Source: an uncultured Gemmatimonadota bacterium
Lineage (GTDB): Bacteria; JAAXHH01
Direction of reading: 5' to 3'
DNA: 64,000 bases
Assembly (NCBI GenBank): GCA_951812955.1
Contig: OX638340.1
Coordinates: 3,749,437-3,813,436 of the forward strand
Part shown: positions 2,420 to 29,932 of the stretch, one piece after another
Layout of the letters: every line of letters begins with the position of its first letter
Numbering within the stretch: position 1 is the stretch's first letter
Translations under genes and position numbers: made by a program
The notes under the pieces: model-generated
The model's input: only the letters and a program-made list of their open reading frames with translations
What the model was told of the DNA's origin: nothing
Databases searched by the model: none

Positions 2420-2476
2420 TGCTACATCCTTTGCTTTCGTGTAGGCGTGCGGACGGTAGAGAGAACGGAGATCGCG

Positions 2477-2938
2477 CTACATGCTCTCTTCCTCTTCCGC
2501 GATGAGTGCGAGGGCGTCGCGGGGATTTTCCGTTGCGATCAGCCGTTTGCGAAGGTTATCGTGCCTGAGCAGGCGGGAAATGTGGGCGAGCGCCCGGATA
2601 TGGGGACCGGACACGTTCAGGGGCGAGACGAGCAGGAAGAAGAGGTAGACAGGCTGCTCGTCGAGGGACTGGAAATCCACGCCCTCCTTCTTGATCCCGA
2701 GCACCCCGACCAGCTTGTCGACGGCCTTGCATTTGCCGTGGGGGATGGCGACCCCCTTGCCGATCCCGGTGCTCATGATCTTCTCCCGTTCCAGGACGGC
2801 CTGCAGCACCTCCCGATTGTCGCTGATCCTGCCGGACGCAGTCAGCGCCGCGGCCAGTTCCTCGATCACTTCCTGCTTCTGCGTGGCCTTAAGGTCTACC
2901 AGGATAGCGTTTTCATCCAACAATTCCGTCAAGCTCAT
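2477..2938 (-). CDS. ptsN: PTS EIIA-Ntr nitrogen regulatory protein
   Basis: PTS EIIA type-2 fold with phosphorylatable His region (GVAIPHGK). Start placed at internal Met (MSLTELLD), giving about 154 aa. Confidence 0.7.
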   Translation of the reverse strand: MSLTELLDENAILVDLKATQKQEVIEELAAALTASGRISDNREVLQAVLEREKIMSTGIGKGVAIPHGKCKAVDKLVGVLGIKKEGVDFQSLDEQPVYLFFLLVSPLNVSGPHIRALAHISRLLRHDNLRKRLIATENPRDALALIAEEEESM

Positions 2939-3139
2939 GCCATGCTCCTGTTTCCCCCATCCTGCCTGAAAACGTATTCGCTTCAAAAACCTGTGTGATT
3001 CTATGTACCCGCCCTGGAATTGTCAACAACGATTTGGATGGCCTCCCAGTCCGTCCGTCCGGAGGCAAATGAAAAAGCCGCCTGACCATGTCGTCAGACG
3101 GCTTCTTAAATCCTGGCAGTCTTCAGCGATAGTGTCCGA

Positions 3140-3682
3140 TCAACCGCCGGCGCGTTCCGCGAAACTGTCTGCTGTCATGTGGGCGGATTCGAGCTGCATT
3201 TTAAGATCGTACCATTTCTCGTTCGCCTTAAGGTCATTGAGTTGCATGGTAAGGGAGTCGGCGAATGCCGAAGCTTCCTGGGCAAGCGTACGGGCTGCCC
3301 TTCCACGGCCCTGCTCGATGCTGCTTGAAATCTCGCCCCAGCGTTCAAGGAAAGCCGGCAGGGCTTCGTCGATCTCACGCTTCGTCAACTCCTTCTGCAC
3401 TACGGATTCCTGGCTGGCCGACTCCACGAGCGCCATGGTATTTTCGGCAGCGGTTTTCGCGTCGCCGTACTCCTCGGCAGCCATGTGTGCCCTGGCCTTT
3501 TCGAGCTCGGCGGCGGCCATTTCGTATTCAGCCGGCGCGTACTTGTCGACTTCGGCTTCCATCGCGTCGGATATGGCCAGTTCCGCTGCGTCCATGGCCT
3601 CGGTGGGTGGTCCCGCGCACGCAGCGGCCACGAACAGGCATGCGACGGCGCTCAGACAGGTCAGAAAGGCCTGCTTGGACAT
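3140..3682 (-). CDS. Putative secreted/lipoprotein of unknown function (alanine/glutamate-rich helical)
   Basis: Internal Met start MSKQAFLTCLSAVACLFVAAACAG gives signal peptide plus lipobox-like AAAC. Remainder low-complexity AE-rich helix. Confidence 0.45.
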   Translation of the reverse strand: MSKQAFLTCLSAVACLFVAAACAGPPTEAMDAAELAISDAMEAEVDKYAPAEYEMAAAELEKARAHMAAEEYGDAKTAAENTMALVESASQESVVQKELTKREIDEALPAFLERWGEISSSIEQGRGRAARTLAQEASAFADSLTMQLNDLKANEKWYDLKMQLESAHMTADSFAERAGG

Positions 3683-3920
3683 GATTGAACCTCCTGTTGA
3701 AACCAGAAATGACGAATGTAAGATCGCTTTATTCGATACCGAATCGACCGGGAAAGACATTATTTCGACAGCATAACACAAATATAATAGACCGGTTCAA
3801 AGGGGTGTCCAGTAAAAAACGTGTCAGGCGCAAAAAACATGACCCGCGGCGGCGGTGCGACCGGGGCGGAAACGGCGCAAGACCGCCCCGCCGGTCAGGC
3901 GTTCGGAGTGGTGATTCCCC

Positions 3921-3949
3921 TTGACATACCGGCCTGTAAACCTTAGTGT
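3921..3949 (+). promoter_or_regulatory. Candidate sigma70-like promoter for purC (TTGACA-17nt-TAGTGT)
   Basis: Read in the 350 bp divergent intergenic region. The -10 element is weak, so low confidence. Confidence 0.25.
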
Positions 3950-4031
3950 GATGGGCTGAGCCGGGAGCGGTATCGACTTTGTGACCGACCGATGCGCAGC
4001 CGTCCATTCACCGAAAGGACCATCGCGAAGC

Positions 4032-4991
4032 ATGGTGTCTGAAGACGTCCTCAGGAGGCAGTTGGAATACGTACTGCACGGTACCAGCTTCGACCTGGGC
4101 AGCAAATTCGAGGGCAAGGTCAGGGACAACTACAGTCTGGACGGGAAGCGGATCATCGTGACCACCGATCGAATTTCCGCCTTCGACAGGGTGTTGTGCG
4201 CCCTGCCCTTCAAGGGGCAGGTCATCAACCAGACCGCGGCCTTCTGGTTCGAGCAGACCCGCCAGATAATCGAGAACCACCTGATCGACGTGCCGGATCC
4301 GAACGTACTCGTGGCCAGGGAGTGCAGGCTGATTCCCGTCGAGATGGTCGTCCGCGGCTACCTGACCGGCGTGACTACCACATCTGCATGGTACCACTAT
4401 TCACATGGAAATCGCAATTTCTGCGGACACGCCCTGCCGGAGGGCATGAAGAAGAACCAGGCCTTCGACCAACCCATCATAACCCCTTCCACCAAGCCGG
4501 TTCAGGGCGGCCATGACGAGTCCATCTCGGGGGAGGAAGTGCTTCGAAGAGGTCTCGTGGAAGAACCGGTGTATCGTGAAATGGAGCGAGCGGCCCTGGA
4601 ACTGTTCGCATTCGGTACGGAAAAGGCCGCCGCCAATAATCTCATCCTGGTGGATACCAAGTATGAGTTCGGCCTGTTCGAGGACCGGGTCATGCTGATC
4701 GACGAGATCCACACGCCAGACTCTTCCAGGTTCTGGGTAAAGAACACCTATCAGGATCTTTTCGAACGGGGCGAGGAGCCGGAAAAACTGGACAAGGAAT
4801 TCGTCCGTGGATGGCTCGCGGACCGCGGTTTTCGTGGTGACGGTCCCATACCCCCTATCCCGGACGAGGTCAAAATTGAAGCTGCCCGCCGTTACATTAA
4901 GGCCTACGAGATGATAACCGCCAGAACCTTCGAAGCCCGGAACGAGGATGTGTTGCAGCGGATCACCCACCGGCTGCGGAACCCGAACTAG
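4032..4991 (+). CDS. purC: Phosphoribosylaminoimidazole-succinocarboxamide (SAICAR) synthase
   Basis: GKVRDNY...TTDRISAFD motif; long-form PurC. Track ORF begins at GTG 3981; Met at 4032 chosen (the GTG at 3981 is possible). Confidence 0.85.
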   Translation: MVSEDVLRRQLEYVLHGTSFDLGSKFEGKVRDNYSLDGKRIIVTTDRISAFDRVLCALPFKGQVINQTAAFWFEQTRQIIENHLIDVPDPNVLVARECRLIPVEMVVRGYLTGVTTTSAWYHYSHGNRNFCGHALPEGMKKNQAFDQPIITPSTKPVQGGHDESISGEEVLRRGLVEEPVYREMERAALELFAFGTEKAAANNLILVDTKYEFGLFEDRVMLIDEIHTPDSSRFWVKNTYQDLFERGEEPEKLDKEFVRGWLADRGFRGDGPIPPIPDEVKIEAARRYIKAYEMITARTFEARNEDVLQRITHRLRNPN

Positions 4992-5076: not shown

Positions 5077-8000
5077 ATGCGCCTGTCAAACCTTCTTGAA
5101 ATCTCTGAAAAGTCCCCTGTCGTACAGCGTTACCTGGCGTTGGCCGCCGATACCGCCTGCTCCGCGAGGGTATCTGGGCTGGCAGGTTCTTCGCGTTCCC
5201 TTCTACTCGCGCACGCGCATAGAAAACGGAACGGCGCGACGCTGGTCATCGTGGAGGACACGGCCTCCGCCGAGGAGATGTTCGAGGATGTCTCCAGTCT
5301 TCTGGATCCCGGGGACGTGGCGCTGTTCCCCCCCTGGGAGGTGCTGCCCTACGACCAGGTCTCTCCGCCGGGCGACTTGTCGGGCCGGCGTCTCGGCGCG
5401 CTGCACGAACTGATGAAGAACAGGCCGCTGTTCGTCGTCGCCACGGTCAGGGCCGTCATGCAGCGCACCATGCCGCCGGCCGTGCTTGCCGGCTCCATCC
5501 TTCACGTCGCCGCGGGCGCTACAGTCTCGTTGAGCGATCTTACAGCGCGGTGCAACCGGCTCGGCTACGAGCGAACGGACATGGTCCAGGCGCCTGGCCA
5601 CTTCAGCGTGCGGGGCGGTATCGTGGATGTTTTCCCCCACGGGATGGAACAACCGTGCAGAATCGAGTTCTTCGGTGACGTAGTGGAATCGATTCGGCTG
5701 TTTGACATCTACACGCAGCGGTCGTCTCGGAACATCCAGGAACTGACGGTGCTCCCGAACAGGGAATTGATCGACGAGCCTGAAACGCGTGCCGATGTGG
5801 TCAGGCGGGTCAGGCAGGCGGCCGAATCGTTTTCGACCGACGCGTCCGAACTGGTCTCTCACATCGAGGACGGAGGTCTGTTCGAAGGCAGCGAACGCTA
5901 CCTTCCCTATTTCCATCCCTCCGCCGCCACCATCATGAATTACCTGCCGGATCACACGCTGATCGTCCGGTGCGAACCCGATGAATTGGAGCGCGAAGCG
6001 GAATCATTCGCGGAGGAATATGAAAACACCCACCTTCGTCGAACGGAGGCGGGTGATCTGGTTCCCGAGCCGGAAGAAGCGATTCTGGGCTGGCATGACA
6101 TAGAGGAGGACTCGGCCTACTATGGCACGATGGACATGGTGCGCGGCGCGCGTGCGTCCAGGGGCTGGCTCGCCATCGGTACCGAGGCATCGGGCGTGTA
6201 CCACGGGGCGATGGACGTCCTGAAGTCCCGGCTGGAGGAATGGAGCGCGGACAACGCCCGGATCGTGGTGGTATGCGACAACGAAGGACAGGCGGAAAGA
6301 CTGCGGGAGATCCTGGGTCCGGACTCCCCGGTGATCGAAATGGCCGTCGGACCGATGCACGCCGGGTTTGTTCTTCCCGACTTGCCCCTCGTGGTGTTGA
6401 CCGACGCGGAGATCTTCAACCGTTACCGCAGACGCCGTCGCAAGGTCTTCAAGGAAGGCGTGGTGATCGAGGATTTCACCAGCCTCAAAGAAGGGGACTA
6501 CGTCGTCCATATAGACCACGGCATCGGCCGGTACGTAGGGTTGAAGCGAATCTCCGTGGACGACCGGGAACGGGACTGCCTGACCCTGATCTACGCCGCA
6601 GACGACCGGGTTTTCATCCCCATCGAGCAGTTGCACCGGGTTCAGAAGTATATCGGTTCCGATGGCGAGGTGCCTGCGTTGTCGAAACTGGGCGGGCGAG
6701 CCTGGGAACAGGCCAAGTCGCGCACCCGAAAGGCGGTCAAGGATATCGCCGAAGATCTGGTCAAGCTCTACGCGGCCCGGCAGGCCAGCCCGGGACACGC
6801 CTTCTCGGCCGACACTCCCTGGCAGACGGAAATGGAAGACTCCTTCATCTACGAGGATACACCCGACCAGGAGTCGGCGACATCGGACGTAAAGTCGGAC
6901 ATGGAGAAATCGGTGCCCATGGACCGATTGATCTGCGGGGACGTGGGGTACGGGAAGACGGAAGTGGCGATACGCGCCGCATTCAAGGCGGTGCTGGACG
7001 GTAAACAGGTCGCCGTGCTGGCCCCGACCACCATCCTGGCCCAGCAGCACCTGACCACCTTCTCCGAGCGGCTCGCGGACTACCCGGTGAACATTCGCAT
7101 GCTGAGCCGCTTCGTTACGCCGCAGGAACAGAAAACCGTTGTGTCCGGGCTCAGGAACGGCGACGTGGATGTCGTCATCGGCACGCACCGCCTCATTTCC
7201 GCCGACATAGAATTTCATGACATGGGCCTGCTTGTCGTCGACGAAGAACAGCGGTTCGGCGTGGCCCACAAGGAGCGGCTCAAGCAATTGAAGACCTCCG
7301 TGGACGTCATGACCATGACCGCCACGCCCATACCGCGGACGTTGCACATGTCGTTGGTTTCCGCCCGCGACATGTCGCTCATCACCACCCCGCCGAGGGA
7401 CCGGCTGCCGGTGCACACCGAGGTGGTGCGTTTCAACGAAGATGTGATCTGCGAGGCGATCATGCGGGAGGTGGACCGGGGCGGACAGGTCTTTTTCGTT
7501 CACAACCGGGTACAATCCATCGAGGCGGTCGCGGAATTCCTGCGTCGCCTCCTGCCCCAGGTATCTTTCGTCGTGGGCCACGGGCAGATGCAGGAGCGGG
7601 AATTGGAGCAGGTGATGATCGACTTTCTGGATCAAAAGTATGATTGCCTCGTGTCCACGATGATCATCGAATCCGGTCTGGATATTCCCAATGTAAACAC
7701 CATCCTGGTCAATCGCGCGGACCGGTTCGGACTTGCCCAGTTGTACCAGCTCCGGGGCCGCGTGGGGAGGTCAAATCACCGGGCCTACGCGTACCTGATG
7801 ATCCCCGCCGCCGGAACGGTCACGCCCGACGCCCGCAAGCGGCTGGCCGTGATCTCCGAGTACACCGCGCTCGGATCGGGATTCCATATCGCCATGAGGG
7901 ACCTCGAGATCCGTGGCGCGGGCAACCTGCTGGGCACGGAGCAACACGGGTTCATATCCTCCATCGGGTTCGATCTCTACTGCCGTCTGTTGAAAGAGGC

Positions 8001-26751: not shown

Positions 26752-26778
26752 TAACCACGCCGACGAAAGGAGCGGAAC

Positions 26779-27555
26779 GTGACAGCATTCGAAGGAAAAG
26801 TGGTCATCGTGACAGGGGGCGCCAAAGGTATTGGCGGCGGCATCGTCCGCGCCTTCGCCGGTGAGGGGGCGCACGTCCTTTGCGCCGATATAGACGACGA
26901 TGCAGGTGCGGAGATCGTCGCATCCAGCGACCGGATCCGCTACGTCCACGCCGACGTGACCACGAGCGAAGTATGCCGTTTCCTGGTGGAGACCGCGATG
27001 GAAGCCTGGGGAGGCGTCGATATACTCTGCAACAACGTGGGGATACAGCCGACGTCGAGCTATCTGCCCGCTCACGAAATGTCCGAAGAGCAGTGGGACC
27101 GGATCATAAATGTCAACCTGAAGAGCCGATTCCTGATGGTCAAATACTGCGTTCCCGTGATGAAACAACGCGGGGGCGGCGTGATCATCAACACGGCGAG
27201 CGTTCAGGGACTGCAGTCGGCGAAGGGTATATCAGCCTACGCGGCGAGCAAGGGGGGCGACCTGTCACTGGTGCGTCAACTTGCCTTGGATTACGCCGAG
27301 GACAATATCCGCGTGGTGGCGGTCAACCCGGGCACCATCGAAACGCCCCTCCTGCAGGAGGCCATCGATTCGATCGGCGGCGCCGAGGACGAAATCCGGA
27401 CAGATATGGCTTCCCGGCACGCCGTGAACCGGCTCGGCAGTCCGGAGGATATTGCCAATGCCGTGCTGTTCCTGGCCAGTGACCGGGCCTCCTTCATCAC
27501 GGGTGAATACGTGAACGTGGACGGGGGACTGATGGCTCGGGGGGCGTGGGCCTAG
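26779..27555 (+). CDS. Short-chain dehydrogenase/reductase (SDR)
   Basis: TGGAKGIGGG cofactor motif, YAASK catalytic motif. GTG start. Its 3' end is duplicated at 29105-29174. Confidence 0.85.
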   Translation: MTAFEGKVVIVTGGAKGIGGGIVRAFAGEGAHVLCADIDDDAGAEIVASSDRIRYVHADVTTSEVCRFLVETAMEAWGGVDILCNNVGIQPTSSYLPAHEMSEEQWDRIINVNLKSRFLMVKYCVPVMKQRGGGVIINTASVQGLQSAKGISAYAASKGGDLSLVRQLALDYAEDNIRVVAVNPGTIETPLLQEAIDSIGGAEDEIRTDMASRHAVNRLGSPEDIANAVLFLASDRASFITGEYVNVDGGLMARGAWA

Positions 27556-27556
27556 G
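27492..27556 (+). repeat. Left copy of ~65-70 bp imperfect direct repeat (3' end of SDR gene)
   Basis: cttcatcacgggtgaatacgtgaacgtggacggggg...gtgggcctagg matches 29105-29174 with a few mismatches and one indel. Confidence 0.7.
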
Positions 27557-27954
27557 GGGGTGTAACAAAGCTACTGCGGTACATGCTGCTATAGGAGCAT
27601 TACAAGAAAACTCGACGTGAAGCCGGCACATTCCCCATTCTTGGATCACGTTTGTTTTTTTCATTCGAGAAACCCGCAGTGATTCCGACTGAGGAAGAAA
27701 CCGGTTCAGATGCGGATAGGAAATCGCAATCCGAGCGCTGTGAAAGTTTCGTCAGTACGATGAATACATTTTAGCGTAGGAAAGTTAGGATATGAGCGTC
27801 GAGTTGATCGGGATAATCAGTATGGGCGTTGCCCTGGCTGGACTTATTCTGGCGTCTAGGCGGGATATCAATCTCCGTCCTGTATCCCTGGAACAGGGCA
27901 GGCAGACCTGAGAGAGCGTATGGCAAGACTGGATGAGATGCTGGAAGGACGATT

Positions 27955-28812
27955 CTACACAACACGTTGATCAGCTCGTAATTGTCTTTTTGCAGCGATG
28001 CGTTTGCGCCTGAGCATCCCAGCCCAATACTGAATCCCGCTATCCTTAGATTCCCTTGCACACCTCCGCACTGCAGCACGAAGCACTTTATTATTCTTAA
28101 GGTTTTCGATGACTTCTAGTCGTGGGCGAACGGGTCCACGACTTAACCACTCCGCTGCGTCCCACGCCGGGTCAAGTTTGCTCTCGGCCGATATTGCTTT
28201 TCTAGCCTCTTCCTCGATTCGGTGGTTTATGTCTTTTGGGGTCCAACTGAATATGAGCGACAATAGAGCACGTATAATCTCACGATAGACATAGCCAATC
28301 ATTGGTTCGGCAGTGTTGTTACGACCCTCGATACTTTCGTACCTTTTTGCTACAAAGACTTCGGCTTTGCCATGTTCCTTAAAATAGTCAACAATATTTG
28401 TGTTGGGCTGGATGGACGTGACGCTTTCCAGATATTGGATGGTGCTGTCGAAACATCGCTCCAGTTCATTAAATGCCGTTATGTTGTGCTTTTGAACATC
28501 CGCCAACAGTAGATGTAGTTTGTGCCCACGAGAACGAACCTGATTCTCTGACAGGCCGCCGTCTATCAGAATCGCCTTTAGGCCCTTCTCGATTGCTTCG
28601 TGAGCATTCTTGGTGTCCGCCCTGATCCTTGCCTTTGAGTATGCTGTGGAGAGTAGTCCAATCTGAAGGAGTCTTTTGAAGAATTCATCTTCAGATTGTG
28701 CATCTAAGTTTGCTGCATCAGTCAGGCGACTATGGATATCGCGCGACGGTCTATCCAGTTCATCGAGGGCATACCTTAGGTCTGCCCATACGTCTTCCTT
28801 TTTTAACGACAT
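27955..28812 (-). CDS. Hypothetical protein with HEPN-like Rx4-6H motif (possible RNase toxin/Abi-like effector)
   Basis: 285 aa, alpha-helical, motif ...AIEKGLKAILIDGG...NQVRSRGHKLHLLLADV... (R-x4/6-H). Basic C-terminal tail. No obvious recombinase motifs. Confidence 0.4.
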   Translation of the reverse strand: MSLKKEDVWADLRYALDELDRPSRDIHSRLTDAANLDAQSEDEFFKRLLQIGLLSTAYSKARIRADTKNAHEAIEKGLKAILIDGGLSENQVRSRGHKLHLLLADVQKHNITAFNELERCFDSTIQYLESVTSIQPNTNIVDYFKEHGKAEVFVAKRYESIEGRNNTAEPMIGYVYREIIRALLSLIFSWTPKDINHRIEEEARKAISAESKLDPAWDAAEWLSRGPVRPRLEVIENLKNNKVLRAAVRRCARESKDSGIQYWAGMLRRKRIAAKRQLRADQRVV

Positions 28813-28985
28813 TTTAATGCCTGCCTTTCAGCACACACAGAACAGATCCACTTGTTGTCAAGAATGATCAGACTTTCTACAGTCTTCTCTTTGTCCAATT
28901 CGTGGTTTGCAATTGATTTCAGGCTGCGGCAAGGCATACCTGAACAGCCGTGAAACGCCCATTGGCTAAAATCCGAAATAACCAC
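28803..28985 (-). CDS. Small (60 aa) four-cysteine zinc-ribbon-like protein, translationally coupled to the downstream HEPN-like gene
   Basis: CSGMPC ... CSVC ... C pattern; 10-bp overlap with the start of the 27955-28812 gene; lies in the low-GC islet. Confidence 0.3.
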   Translation of the reverse strand: MVISDFSQWAFHGCSGMPCRSLKSIANHELDKEKTVESLIILDNKWICSVCAERQALKCR

Positions 28986-29104
28986 GATTCAATAGCCTGG
29001 CCTTATGCCGCACAGAATAGATAGATCCGGATTAGACCCTGGAATCTGACAATGAGTTACTAGTCAGGGCGGGATTGGTGCTATCGAAACCGCTGCCGAT
29101 CATT

Positions 29105-29174
29105 CTTCATCACGGGTGTATTCGTGGACGTTAACAGGGACTTGATGGGATGGTCCGCAAGCACGTGGGCCTAG
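29105..29174 (+). repeat. Right copy of imperfect direct repeat (degenerate duplicate of SDR 3' coding end, FITGVFVDVNRDLMGWSASTWA*)
   Basis: Aligns to 27492-27556. Its TAG stop overlaps the sdhB stop on the opposite strand in a palindromic CTAG, as does the left copy. Confidence 0.7.
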
Positions 29175-29932
29175 GCCGGCTCGTCGCTGTCCTTCGACTT
29201 GAAGATGCGCAGGAGCCGGTTGAGGGGGTCGTAGAACTCGCCGACGACCCTTTCCTTCAGGGGAATGATGGCGTTGTCCGTGATCGTGATCTCTTCGGGA
29301 CAGACGTTGGTGCAGCACTTGGTGATGTTGCAGTAGCCGATGCCCTGGTCGTCCTTGAGGTCGCCGAGGCGGTCCCCGGTGTCGAGGGGATGCATCTCCA
29401 GGGCGGCGTTGTGCACCATGAGGCGCGGGCCGATGAACTCCTCGTGCAGGTCATGCTCCCGCAGGACGTGACAGACGTCCTGGCAAAGAAAGCACTCGAT
29501 GCACTTGCGGAACTCCTGCACCCGCTCGATATCTTCCTGGTCCATGCGCCAGGTACCGTCCTCGGCGTCTGGCTTGCGGGGCTTGAAGGGCTTGATCTTT
29601 TCCTTCGCGCGGTAATTCCAGGACACGTCGGTGACCAGGTCCCGTATCGTCTTGAAGGCCTTCATCGGCTCGATCGTGATGGCCTCGTCCTCGGGCAGGT
29701 CGCTCATCCGCGTCATGCACATCAGCTTCGGGTTGCCGTTGACCTCGGCGGAACAGGAGCCGCACTTGCCGGCCTTGCAATTCCAGCGGACCGCGAGGTC
29801 CGGGGCCGATTCCGCCTGGATCTGGTGCACCGCGTCCAGCACTACCATGCCTTCGTCGATCTCGGTGGAGTAGTTCTCGAAATCGCCGGTCTCACCATCG
29901 CCTCGCCAGATTCGGAAGTTGGCCGTCGCCAT
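29171..29932 (-). CDS. sdhB: Succinate dehydrogenase/fumarate reductase iron-sulfur subunit
   Basis: 2Fe-2S CxxxxCxxC (CKAGKCGSC), 4Fe-4S/3Fe-4S motifs (CIECFLCQDVC, CTNVCP). 253 aa. Confidence 0.9.
   Translation of the reverse strand: MATANFRIWRGDGETGDFENYSTEIDEGMVVLDAVHQIQAESAPDLAVRWNCKAGKCGSCSAEVNGNPKLMCMTRMSDLPEDEAITIEPMKAFKTIRDLVTDVSWNYRAKEKIKPFKPRKPDAEDGTWRMDQEDIERVQEFRKCIECFLCQDVCHVLREHDLHEEFIGPRLMVHNAALEMHPLDTGDRLGDLKDDQGIGYCNITKCCTNVCPEEITITDNAIIPLKERVVGEFYDPLNRLLRIFKSKDSDEPA

Follow-up and report, generated by a model that had tools for sequence, protein, structure and literature searches.

Genomic islands that tyrosine integrases place at the 3' ends of tRNA or protein-coding genes are bounded by attL and attR, a direct repeat of the gene end that flanks DNA of atypical base composition, the replacement 3' end being supplied by the element. 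The upstream copy keeps the gene intact and the displaced copy is non-functional. DNA can also be integrated without a recombinase of its own, by Campbell-type single crossover or by homology-facilitated illegitimate recombination (PMC3240628), and a duplicated stretch of the anchor gene can remain. The locus described here has the repeat-flanked layout of such islands. It lies in a 64,000-nucleotide (nt) stretch of contig OX638340.1 (assembly GCA_951812955.1) from an uncultured Gemmatimonadota bacterium, hereafter the window. In this window, a low-GC interval carrying a gene for a predicted HEPN-fold protein (the HEPN gene) separates a short-chain dehydrogenase (SDR) gene from the convergent gene sdhB and is bracketed by two copies of the SDR 3' end. 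Comparison with related genomes suggested, with moderate confidence, that DNA has been inserted repeatedly at the SDR-sdhB junction in this Gemmatimonadota lineage, and that two nested layers and one scar are present there in the window.

The SDR gene (26779-27555, plus strand; Pfam adh_short_C2, E 1.5e-63) is inherited vertically, and its orthologues, at 83-94% amino acid (aa) identity, belonged to Gemmatimonadota metagenome-assembled genomes (MAGs) wherever a source was named. The gene sdhB (29171-29932, minus strand; Pfam Fer2_3 and Fer4_8) encodes the succinate dehydrogenase iron-sulfur subunit and converges on SDR, with 1,615 nt between the two stops. Exact or near-exact copies of both proteins sit in clusters whose named members are Gemmatimonadota MAGs. 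Orthologous loci (L008-L011, L029, L038, L039 and L045) were collected from SDR homologues at 83-94% identity. An additional locus, L046, came from a protein that clusters with HEPN; this 251-kb contig is collinear with the window over 10 kb at ~90% identity.

The last 74 nt of SDR (27483-27556) recur at 29096-29175 with ~75-77% identity and six gapped positions. The two copies are collinear, lie in the same reading frame, and have in common the exact blocks TTCATCACGGGTG and CGTGGGCCTAGG, the latter terminal in both. Their local alignment score was 28, compared with a mean of 12.7, a standard deviation of 1.6 and a maximum of 20 in 200 shuffles (5 kb, both strands). Chance likeness, for which only the short length of the copies (74-80 nt) can be cited, has a practically negligible probability given this score, the collinearity, the common frame and the shared terminus. 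A search for repeat homology upstream of 29096, further into SDR, found no support.

The left copy (27483-27556, plus strand; GC 0.68; 94.6% identical to L046) is the functional 3' end of SDR plus one base past the stop. The C-termini of all SDR orthologues, down to 72% identity, read ...FITGE[YF]VNVDGGLMA[RK]G[AT]WA*, and because this end is identical or near-identical in all of them, the left copy is the native, selected one. The right copy (29096-29175, plus strand; GC 0.55; 97.5% identical to L046) is a decayed, non-coding relic, which translates as FITGVFVDVNRDLMGWSASTWA* and has lost the VDGG motif. Rfam and tRNA scans were empty, and therefore this is not a tRNA-type attachment site. 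As a separate observation, the 42-nt SDR-sdhB spacer of L045 (1195-1256) is a tandem array of degenerate SDR-terminus copies, with GGCCTGGGCATAG present twice plus GGCATAG. The SDR terminus is prone to local re-duplication.

Base composition changes sharply between the two copies. GC is 0.608 over the window and 0.61 in SDR, and falls to 0.49 in 27557-27949, 0.47 in 27950-28993 and 0.51 in 28994-29095, which makes the 0.47-0.51 interval between the copies the lowest-GC kilobase of the 64 kb. GC at third codon positions (GC3) is 0.76 in SDR and 0.90 in sdhB, compared with 0.48 in the 285-aa HEPN open reading frame (ORF). The spacer parts of the interval are low in GC in relatives as well (0.52-0.53). 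Accordingly, a first, sequence-only reading of this locus was right that the SDR 3' end recurs about 1.6 kb downstream and that GC drops between the copies. Its claim that both copies end in a CTAG that also forms the sdhB stop holds for the right copy only, as the CTAG of the left copy contains SDR's own stop alone.

The distance between SDR and sdhB varies widely among relatives. It is 42 nt in L045 (SDR 93% identical at the aa level), where the spacer is made of the degenerate SDR-terminus repeats, and 100 nt in L029 and 118 nt in L039, both with AT-rich spacers. It increases to 449 nt in L010, which has one small-gene unit, and to 698 nt in L008 and L009 and 783 nt in L011, which have two tandem units. 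The window, at 1,615 nt, has a unit, the HEPN insert and the relic, and L046, at 1,617 nt, has the same content.

The small gene responsible for these units encodes a membrane protein of 65-71 aa that begins with a hydrophobic helix (MSVELIGIISVGV.LAGLILASRRDINLR...). In the window it is present in two pieces (27792-27949, resuming at 28995-29035) and is frameshifted. The segment 27557-27949 (plus strand) contains spacer, whose first ~7 nt resemble the sdhB end, followed by the 5' two-thirds of the small gene (ATG at 27792). It shares 77-79% identity with the corresponding segment of L008-L011 and is cut by the HEPN insertion. The decayed 3' end of the gene, at 28995-29045 (plus strand), can be aligned to the last part of small gene 1 of L008 and L011, ATCCGGATTAGACCCTG among the matching bases, and the window fragments match the intact 65/71-aa genes of L008 in tblastn. 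Together these two segments (~450 nt of the interval) are a spacer typical of the lineage, orthologous in L008-L011, L038 and L046. The SDR-spacer junction is at the identical position in all of these loci, and L008-L011 have neither HEPN nor the repeat; the contig of L038 stops before the region where HEPN or the repeat would lie. In L008-L011 the last small-gene copy ends on the CTAG of sdhB.

In L046 the small ORF is in frame as far as the HEPN insert. The window has a 1-nt deletion at 27895 relative to L046 that leads to an early stop at 27909-27911, and its small gene has decayed further after truncation by the insert. Beyond the small-gene end, a 50-nt segment (29046-29095) that is 100% identical to L046 leads to the relic. 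An additional kind of cargo was observed in the closer relative L038 (1007-1440; SDR 93% aa identity), where ~430 nt between the SDR stop and the small-gene spacer encode, on the minus strand, a protein that by eye resembles XRE/helix-turn-helix (HTH) antitoxins, the third cargo kind at this junction.

The younger layer is a 1,045-bp insertion that carries the HEPN gene (27950-28994, minus strand). In alignment with L011 (position 7185), small-gene sequence passes without a break from 27948 to 28995, so this segment is a clean insertion without loss or duplication of target DNA. No target-site duplication was found at the insert, with the small gene running on undoubled. ACGATTC is present at both insert ends (27949-27955 and 28984-28990). 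Neither the 1,045-bp insert nor the interval as a whole has inverted repeats at its ends (best local scores 8 and 5), and no palindrome or core (RYYYAAC/GTTRRRY) like those of integron attC sites was seen at either junction by inspection only. The 285-, 60- and 102-aa ORFs of the interval had no match to recombinase families, the rest of the 64-kb window not having been scanned. The 102-aa ORF had no family match of any kind, and the 60-aa ORF had only a sub-threshold zinc-finger match.

Within the insert, the 285-aa HEPN gene occupies 27955-28812 (minus strand) and is preceded by a 5' leader (28813-28882, minus strand; about -1 to -70) whose DNA is conserved in other phyla, to about -35 in most loci and to -65/-70 in L016 and L019. 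The 60-aa Cys-rich ORF (28803-28985, minus strand) overlies this conserved leader by its last ~12-24 codons alone. It had no family match above noise, most other HEPN loci have no equivalent complete ORF, and it is probably not a gene. Its candidacy as an upstream antitoxin gene was dropped, as the ORF is not conserved in other HEPN loci.

The comparison with L046 provided evidence that these segments do not share one history. Window and L046 are 90.2% identical in the cyclase gene, 90.5% in SDR, 94.6% in the left repeat copy and 79.4% in the spacer 27557-27949, the last being a neutral-like value. Identity then rises to 98.8-100% in the HEPN insert (10 differences, all in the ORF), 96% in the small-gene end, 100% in the 50-nt segment and 97.5% in the relic, the last three together matching at 178/182 positions, and returns to 95.9% in sdhB (90.6% to L008). 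Mismatches are dense to 27857, sparse over 27880-27936, and at ~1% to 29167, with spacing of the sdhB type again from 29213. The synonymous divergence (dS) is 0.016 in HEPN, 0.34 in SDR and 0.20 in sdhB. Mismatch spacing and dS thus delimit a near-identical block of ~1.3 kb at approximately 27860-29210 (roughly 27860/27950 to 29175/29210), in which divergence from L046 is ~20-fold lower than in the spacer.

Strong purifying selection could be invoked for this near-identity; the relic and the 50-nt segment would then serve the HEPN gene as a functional regulatory region or as a small RNA. Only four differences fall within the 363 nt that precede the HEPN start, where its promoter must lie. We give this explanation a very slim chance. 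Third codon positions in HEPN are 98.6% identical (dS 0.016), which is beyond the reach of protein selection; the relic has nothing unusual in RNA structure (z about 0.4 on either strand) and no Rfam match. A scan for a promoter- or terminator-like site on the HEPN strand found none, and was itself uninformative. Since selection cannot explain near-identical third codon positions, the block was exchanged recently between the two lineages. The route was most likely homologous recombination, within the small gene at the left end of the block and within the relic or the beginning of sdhB at its right end. No recombination breakpoint inside SDR or sdhB emerged when sliding-window identity was computed against L008 and L038.

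These results bear directly on the sequence-only reading, in which 27557-29095 is one site-specifically integrated low-GC element with its own copy of the SDR 3' end, either a remnant or mobilised in trans. Several features agree with it. A direct repeat of a gene 3' end brackets low-GC DNA, the working SDR end is the upstream copy, and, as that reading stated, there is no recombinase among the interval's scanned ORFs. We nevertheless consider it very improbable. About 450 nt of the interval are orthologous spacer that is present in relatives lacking both HEPN and the repeat, the HEPN part entered the small gene as a clean insertion of its own, and the spacer (79% identical to L046) and the HEPN-to-relic part (~99%) differ ~20-fold in divergence. 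Additionally, DNA conservation in other phyla ends ~70 nt upstream and 15 nt downstream of the HEPN ORF, with no SDR-like sequence alongside. The right repeat has moved together with the HEPN insert and the spacer has stayed behind, and therefore a single 1.55-kb element of uniform history is excluded.

The idea of an integration footprint survives in spirit for the older layer, but the unit was drawn wrongly, as the HEPN gene is a later nested insertion that is independently mobile. Likewise, the 285-aa and 60-aa ORFs reported in that reading exist, but the Cys4 ORF is not conserved elsewhere and the frameshifted small membrane-protein gene had been overlooked. The anticipated short junctions without an insert were found in closer relatives (42, 100 and 118 nt), but none in which the SDR stop abuts the sdhB stop.

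The origin of the relic was approached through its junctions. At the relic-sdhB junction (...ACGTGGGC-CTAGG-CCGGCTCG...), the SDR end is fused exactly to the sdhB end. The bases past the SDR stop are CTAGG-CGGGTTG in L046 and CTAGG-TGGGTTC in L008, and the sdhB end of L045 is CTAGG-CGGGTTC, whose CGGGTTC is a synonymous variant of the CCGGCTC of the window. The fusion of relic and sdhB and the sdhB-like bases after the SDR stop suggest that SDR and sdhB once shared a CTAG. Judged from these junction sequences, the target duplication would reach ~7 nt into sdhB on the left and 76 nt into SDR on the right, the latter in the window and L046.

We therefore favor, at about even probability, a layered history composed of an ancient insertion that duplicated ~85 nt at overlapping stops, a nested HEPN insertion and a recent block exchange. 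In the older layer, SDR and sdhB would have ended on a shared CTAG, and, as the simplest single event, small-gene DNA would have inserted there, duplicating ~85 nt across both gene ends. Each duplicate could then have kept the half that was needed, the left one the SDR end while its ~7 sdhB-derived nt decayed, and the right one the sdhB end while its 76 SDR-derived nt decayed into the relic. A duplication of this size would be compatible with a Campbell-type single crossover, with one-sided homologous plus illegitimate recombination (PMC3240628) or with replication-based duplication; it does not fit a transposase, and no integrase is implicated at either junction. In the younger layer, the 1,045-bp HEPN segment inserted cleanly into the small gene and truncated it. 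The HEPN insert, the small-gene end, the 50-nt segment and the relic were recently exchanged between two Gemmatimonadota lineages ~10% diverged.

A number of observations weigh against this account. No relative was found in which SDR and sdhB truly share a stop, the closest empty site being that of L045 with its 42-nt spacer. The L008 clade has no relic, so the model needs a later loss there and a second small gene that ends exactly on the CTAG. The ~7-nt sdhB match after the SDR stop is short, expected by chance in about 1 in 100 cases (an estimate after multiple comparisons), and in the window itself it has decayed to 2/7. The relic's divergence of ~0.25 compares with an expectation of 0.16-0.40 for an ancient origin, depending on the neutral proxy, and gives no clear date. 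The idea that the 50-nt segment 29046-29095 opens another small-gene unit, of the kind seen in L011, was rejected, since its similarity to the L011 sequence beyond the small gene was not significant (94 of 1000 shuffles scored equally well; p ~0.09). Regarding the HEPN gene, no relatives were found in viral contigs, plasmids or phage records and no vehicle was identified, and its putative RNase or toxin role, discussed below, would draw on fold similarity and one conserved R...H pair of atypical spacing.

A tentative alternative, which we consider possible but less than probable, is that the relic is a secondary scar of the window/L046 lineage only, formed after the spacer was in place, and that the spacer insertion itself duplicated just ~12 nt (CTAGG plus 7 nt). 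The scar might have arisen by a tandem duplication that began 80 nt inside SDR, after which the second unit was lost between CTAGG repeats, or by homology-facilitated illegitimate recombination with DNA of a relative having an empty SDR-CTAG-sdhB site, a process established in naturally competent bacteria (PMC3240628). Consistent with a secondary scar, the L008 clade spacer is flanked by CTAGG on both sides and lacks a relic. Unit copy number also changes at this position, with one in L010 and two in L008, L009 and L011, and L045 re-duplicates the SDR terminus locally, so local duplication and deletion events do happen at this site. By the SDR dS clock, the relic, at ~25% divergence, appears younger than the split from L008, but the age argument reverses when spacer divergence (21-22% between window and L008) is taken as the neutral clock. 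Additionally, a secondary scar requires two or more events, and its recombination route requires an overlapping-stop donor, none of which was observed.

Whichever origin applies to the relic, the HEPN gene has a distribution of its own. Homologues at 66-87% aa identity were found in MAGs of other phyla, at least six in number, including Chloroflexota (among them Dehalococcoidia and Caldilineaceae), Latescibacterota, Acidobacteriota (Vicinamibacterales) and Alpha- and Gammaproteobacteria; a Nitrospirales MAG had a 156-nt HEPN fragment only. DNA identity to the window is 80-87% in most distinct loci and 67-75% in three more distant ones. Across phyla this identity is limited to window positions 27952-28849, to 28882 in some, which corresponds to the ORF with ~35-70 nt upstream and 3-15 nt downstream. 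The gene has a GC of 0.45-0.52 (0.60 in L021) in hosts of 0.51-0.71. Its dS to most cross-phylum copies is 0.25-0.6, below the SDR dS to sister Gemmatimonadota (0.86 to L008 and 0.52 to L038), and its ratio of nonsynonymous to synonymous divergence (dN/dS) is 0.24-0.43, compared with 0.03-0.09 in SDR and sdhB. A GC of ~50% in nearly all hosts, combined with cross-phylum sharing at low synonymous divergence, indicates that the HEPN cassette is horizontally mobile.

Several of the source samples are sponge metagenome projects, going by their labels, and only four HEPN loci came from Joint Genome Institute (JGI) metagenomes. The HEPN hosts and most relatives of the window appear to be sponge-associated, a habitat link drawn from sample labels and the phylum list. 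A study of sponge symbionts documented thousands of recent cross-phylum transfers including defence genes (Robbins et al. 2021, PMC8163846), and the HEPN host phylum list matches the sponge microbiome presented there.

The limits of the cassette were compared between loci. Two alternative leaders precede the HEPN ATG, either the ~70-nt leader or, in L015, L021 and L034, GGAACTTCGTGAC(A) directly before the ATG. For the same HEPN protein, upstream homology between L034 and L030 breaks off 3 nt ahead of the ATG. In five loci from different phyla, GGAACTTCGTGAC coincides with an alternative upstream limit of the cassette (L012 and L013 at about -68; L015, L021 and L034 directly before the ATG), and the usual ~50-nt leader is missing in three of the five. 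At the window insert edge, the 12-mer CTATTGAATCGT (28984-28995) was observed, and again in L012 (5914-5938), 70 nt downstream of the gene, where it is part of the palindrome ACGATTCAATAG-G-CTATTGATTGAT. In L016 and L019, upstream homology stops at the related sequence CT(A/G)TTGAAT, at about -70 relative to the HEPN ATG. The edge motifs CTATTGAATCGT and GGAACTTCGTGAC were found post hoc and are weakly enriched; they are suggestive of either a recombination site or coincidence, and serve as a lead only.

It is conceivable, but in our judgment unlikely, that the HEPN gene is a self-contained, ~0.95-kb single-gene mobile cassette with defined ends, inserted in trans by a recombinase at short sites like CTATTGAAT(CGT). 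The ends proposed under this model would be the conserved ~70-nt leader and AATTCGATAT just after the stop. The CTATTGAAT(CGT) motif is present at the window insert edge; in L016 and L019 it lies where upstream homology ends, and in L012 it occurs as a palindrome just downstream of the gene. If true, this would account for the spread of one ORF over at least seven phyla of a shared host-associated microbiome without phage, plasmid or transposase.

Two cross-phylum loci have paired sequences around HEPN. In L016, from a Chloroflexota MAG, the gene lies between direct copies at 4117-4826 and 5947-6663 that are 88% identical over 717 nt. The repeated region contains an intact 172-aa ORF, acetyltransferase-like (GNAT) by eye, so that host DNA is duplicated around the cassette. 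In L021, from a Dehalococcoidia MAG, HEPN lies between same-strand serine recombinase paralogues (2447-4330 and 5908-7515; 79% identity over 1,548 nt) and is probably inside a mobile element. The proposal that HEPN always sits between direct repeats of host DNA, as in Campbell-type capture, was rejected: it is true of L016, the "repeats" of L021 are the recombinase paralogues, and most loci have none.

The assignment of the 285-aa protein depends on structure prediction. Its Pfam HEPN match is below threshold (E 0.008; 16.8 bits against a cut-off of 22), PADLOC and NCBIfam gave no match and PHROGs sub-threshold matches only, with the small ORFs behaving likewise, and a PDB sequence search with the family profile returned noise and no sequence relative. 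The AlphaFold model built with 27 homologues (mean predicted local distance difference test score, pLDDT, 80.6; predicted template modelling score, pTM, 0.77) predicts a four-helix up-and-down HEPN core fold; the C-terminal half is an additional helical part for which no match was found. Among the 27 family sequences, H97, H71 and E72 are invariant and R93 nearly so. The R...H spacing is Rx3H, atypical against Rx4-6H, and two members have Rx5H through an insertion. The family is rare, with 70 cluster representatives at E<=1e-3 among 1.84 billion proteins and 22 at 1e-30. The distant relatives scanned are proteins of 284-591 aa that at best are annotated "HEPN" too. One homologue, P0002 (349 aa), has an internal tandem duplication of residues ~65-131, the HEPN domain core including the R...H motif.

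In other genomes the HEPN gene has neighbours of defence-island type, including Fic, NERD, DUF4268, DUF3800, a methylase with Vsr, FRG and RE_XamI. Neither the window nor the annotated neighbourhoods of the other loci contain an adjoining MNT or other evident antitoxin gene, and an NTP_transf_2 gene is found ~3 kb from HEPN in L031-L033 only. Fold and genomic context suggest that the HEPN protein acts alone, most likely as a toxin of the RNase type or as an effector of abortive infection. As a side observation, the closest cross-phylum HEPN copy (87% aa identity), in L030-L037, is always followed by a convergent 99-aa gene (4030-4329 in L030 coordinates) with a weak HTH match (HTH_23, E 4e-4), which is absent from the window.

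Another variable position was noted one gene away. The gap between the cyclase gene and SDR is 27 nt in the window (26752-26778), compared with an insert of ~3.3 kb in L008 (2646-6000), L009, L010 and L011. This insert contains a 368-aa gene and a 285-aa gene with a weak AbiEii match, and an Mrr_cat gene in L009 and L011. The cyclase-SDR gap is a second hot spot, one gene from the SDR-sdhB junction.

Altogether, these observations call for caution in island calling, as low-GC DNA flanked by a gene-end repeat may be a stack of unrelated events; the layers could be separated here only through comparison with sister genomes. Duplicating the overlap of two convergent gene ends would be a possible way to tolerate an insertion, each copy keeping one gene intact. 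The HEPN gene, being uncharacterised, rare, cross-phylum and fast-evolving (dN/dS about 0.3), is a reasonable candidate toxin or defence gene, and its cassette could help to follow recent gene flow between uncultured symbionts. The locus is notable for an uncharacterised HEPN family in a very compact mobile unit, and for two convergent genes that appear to have been preserved by overlap duplication.

Compared with the known systems, the locus departs from tyrosine-integrase islands in that no integrase was found in the scanned ORFs, the repeats are ~75% identical and the interior is a mosaic with vertically inherited sequence. Additionally, the left junction is common to relatives, the right repeat is not, and the duplicate seems to span two convergent gene ends. 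Campbell-type or illegitimate recombination would fit both the ~85-nt duplication and the later exchange of the HEPN block via its flanks, although the homology available here, ~80 nt, is very short. Unlike an insertion sequence or miniature inverted-repeat transposable element, the insert has no terminal inverted repeats and no target-site duplication. As in defence and accessory hot spots between core genes, the same position holds differing cargo (one or two small genes, the XRE-like gene in L038, HEPN), but the site here is confined to the few bases where two convergent genes end and the cargo units are very small, at 0.4-1 kb. For the HEPN protein, the comparison systems are the toxins of HEPN-MNT (type VII) toxin-antitoxin modules (e.g., SO_3166, PDB 5yep, 7ae2 and 8xdj) and the HEPN RNase domains of Csm6, from which it differs by its 285-aa length, the extra helical C-terminal half, the lack of an adjacent MNT and Rx3H instead of Rx4-6H. 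The lateral transfer described for sponge symbionts involves the same phyla and recent transfers of defence genes, with toxin-antitoxin genes enriched (PMC8163846); the passages covered of that census do not describe this HEPN family, the compact cassette boundaries or the insertion site. All the events proposed for this locus are of known kinds: insertion at a hot spot, a scar left by recombination, and movement of a toxin or defence gene between phyla that share a microbiome.

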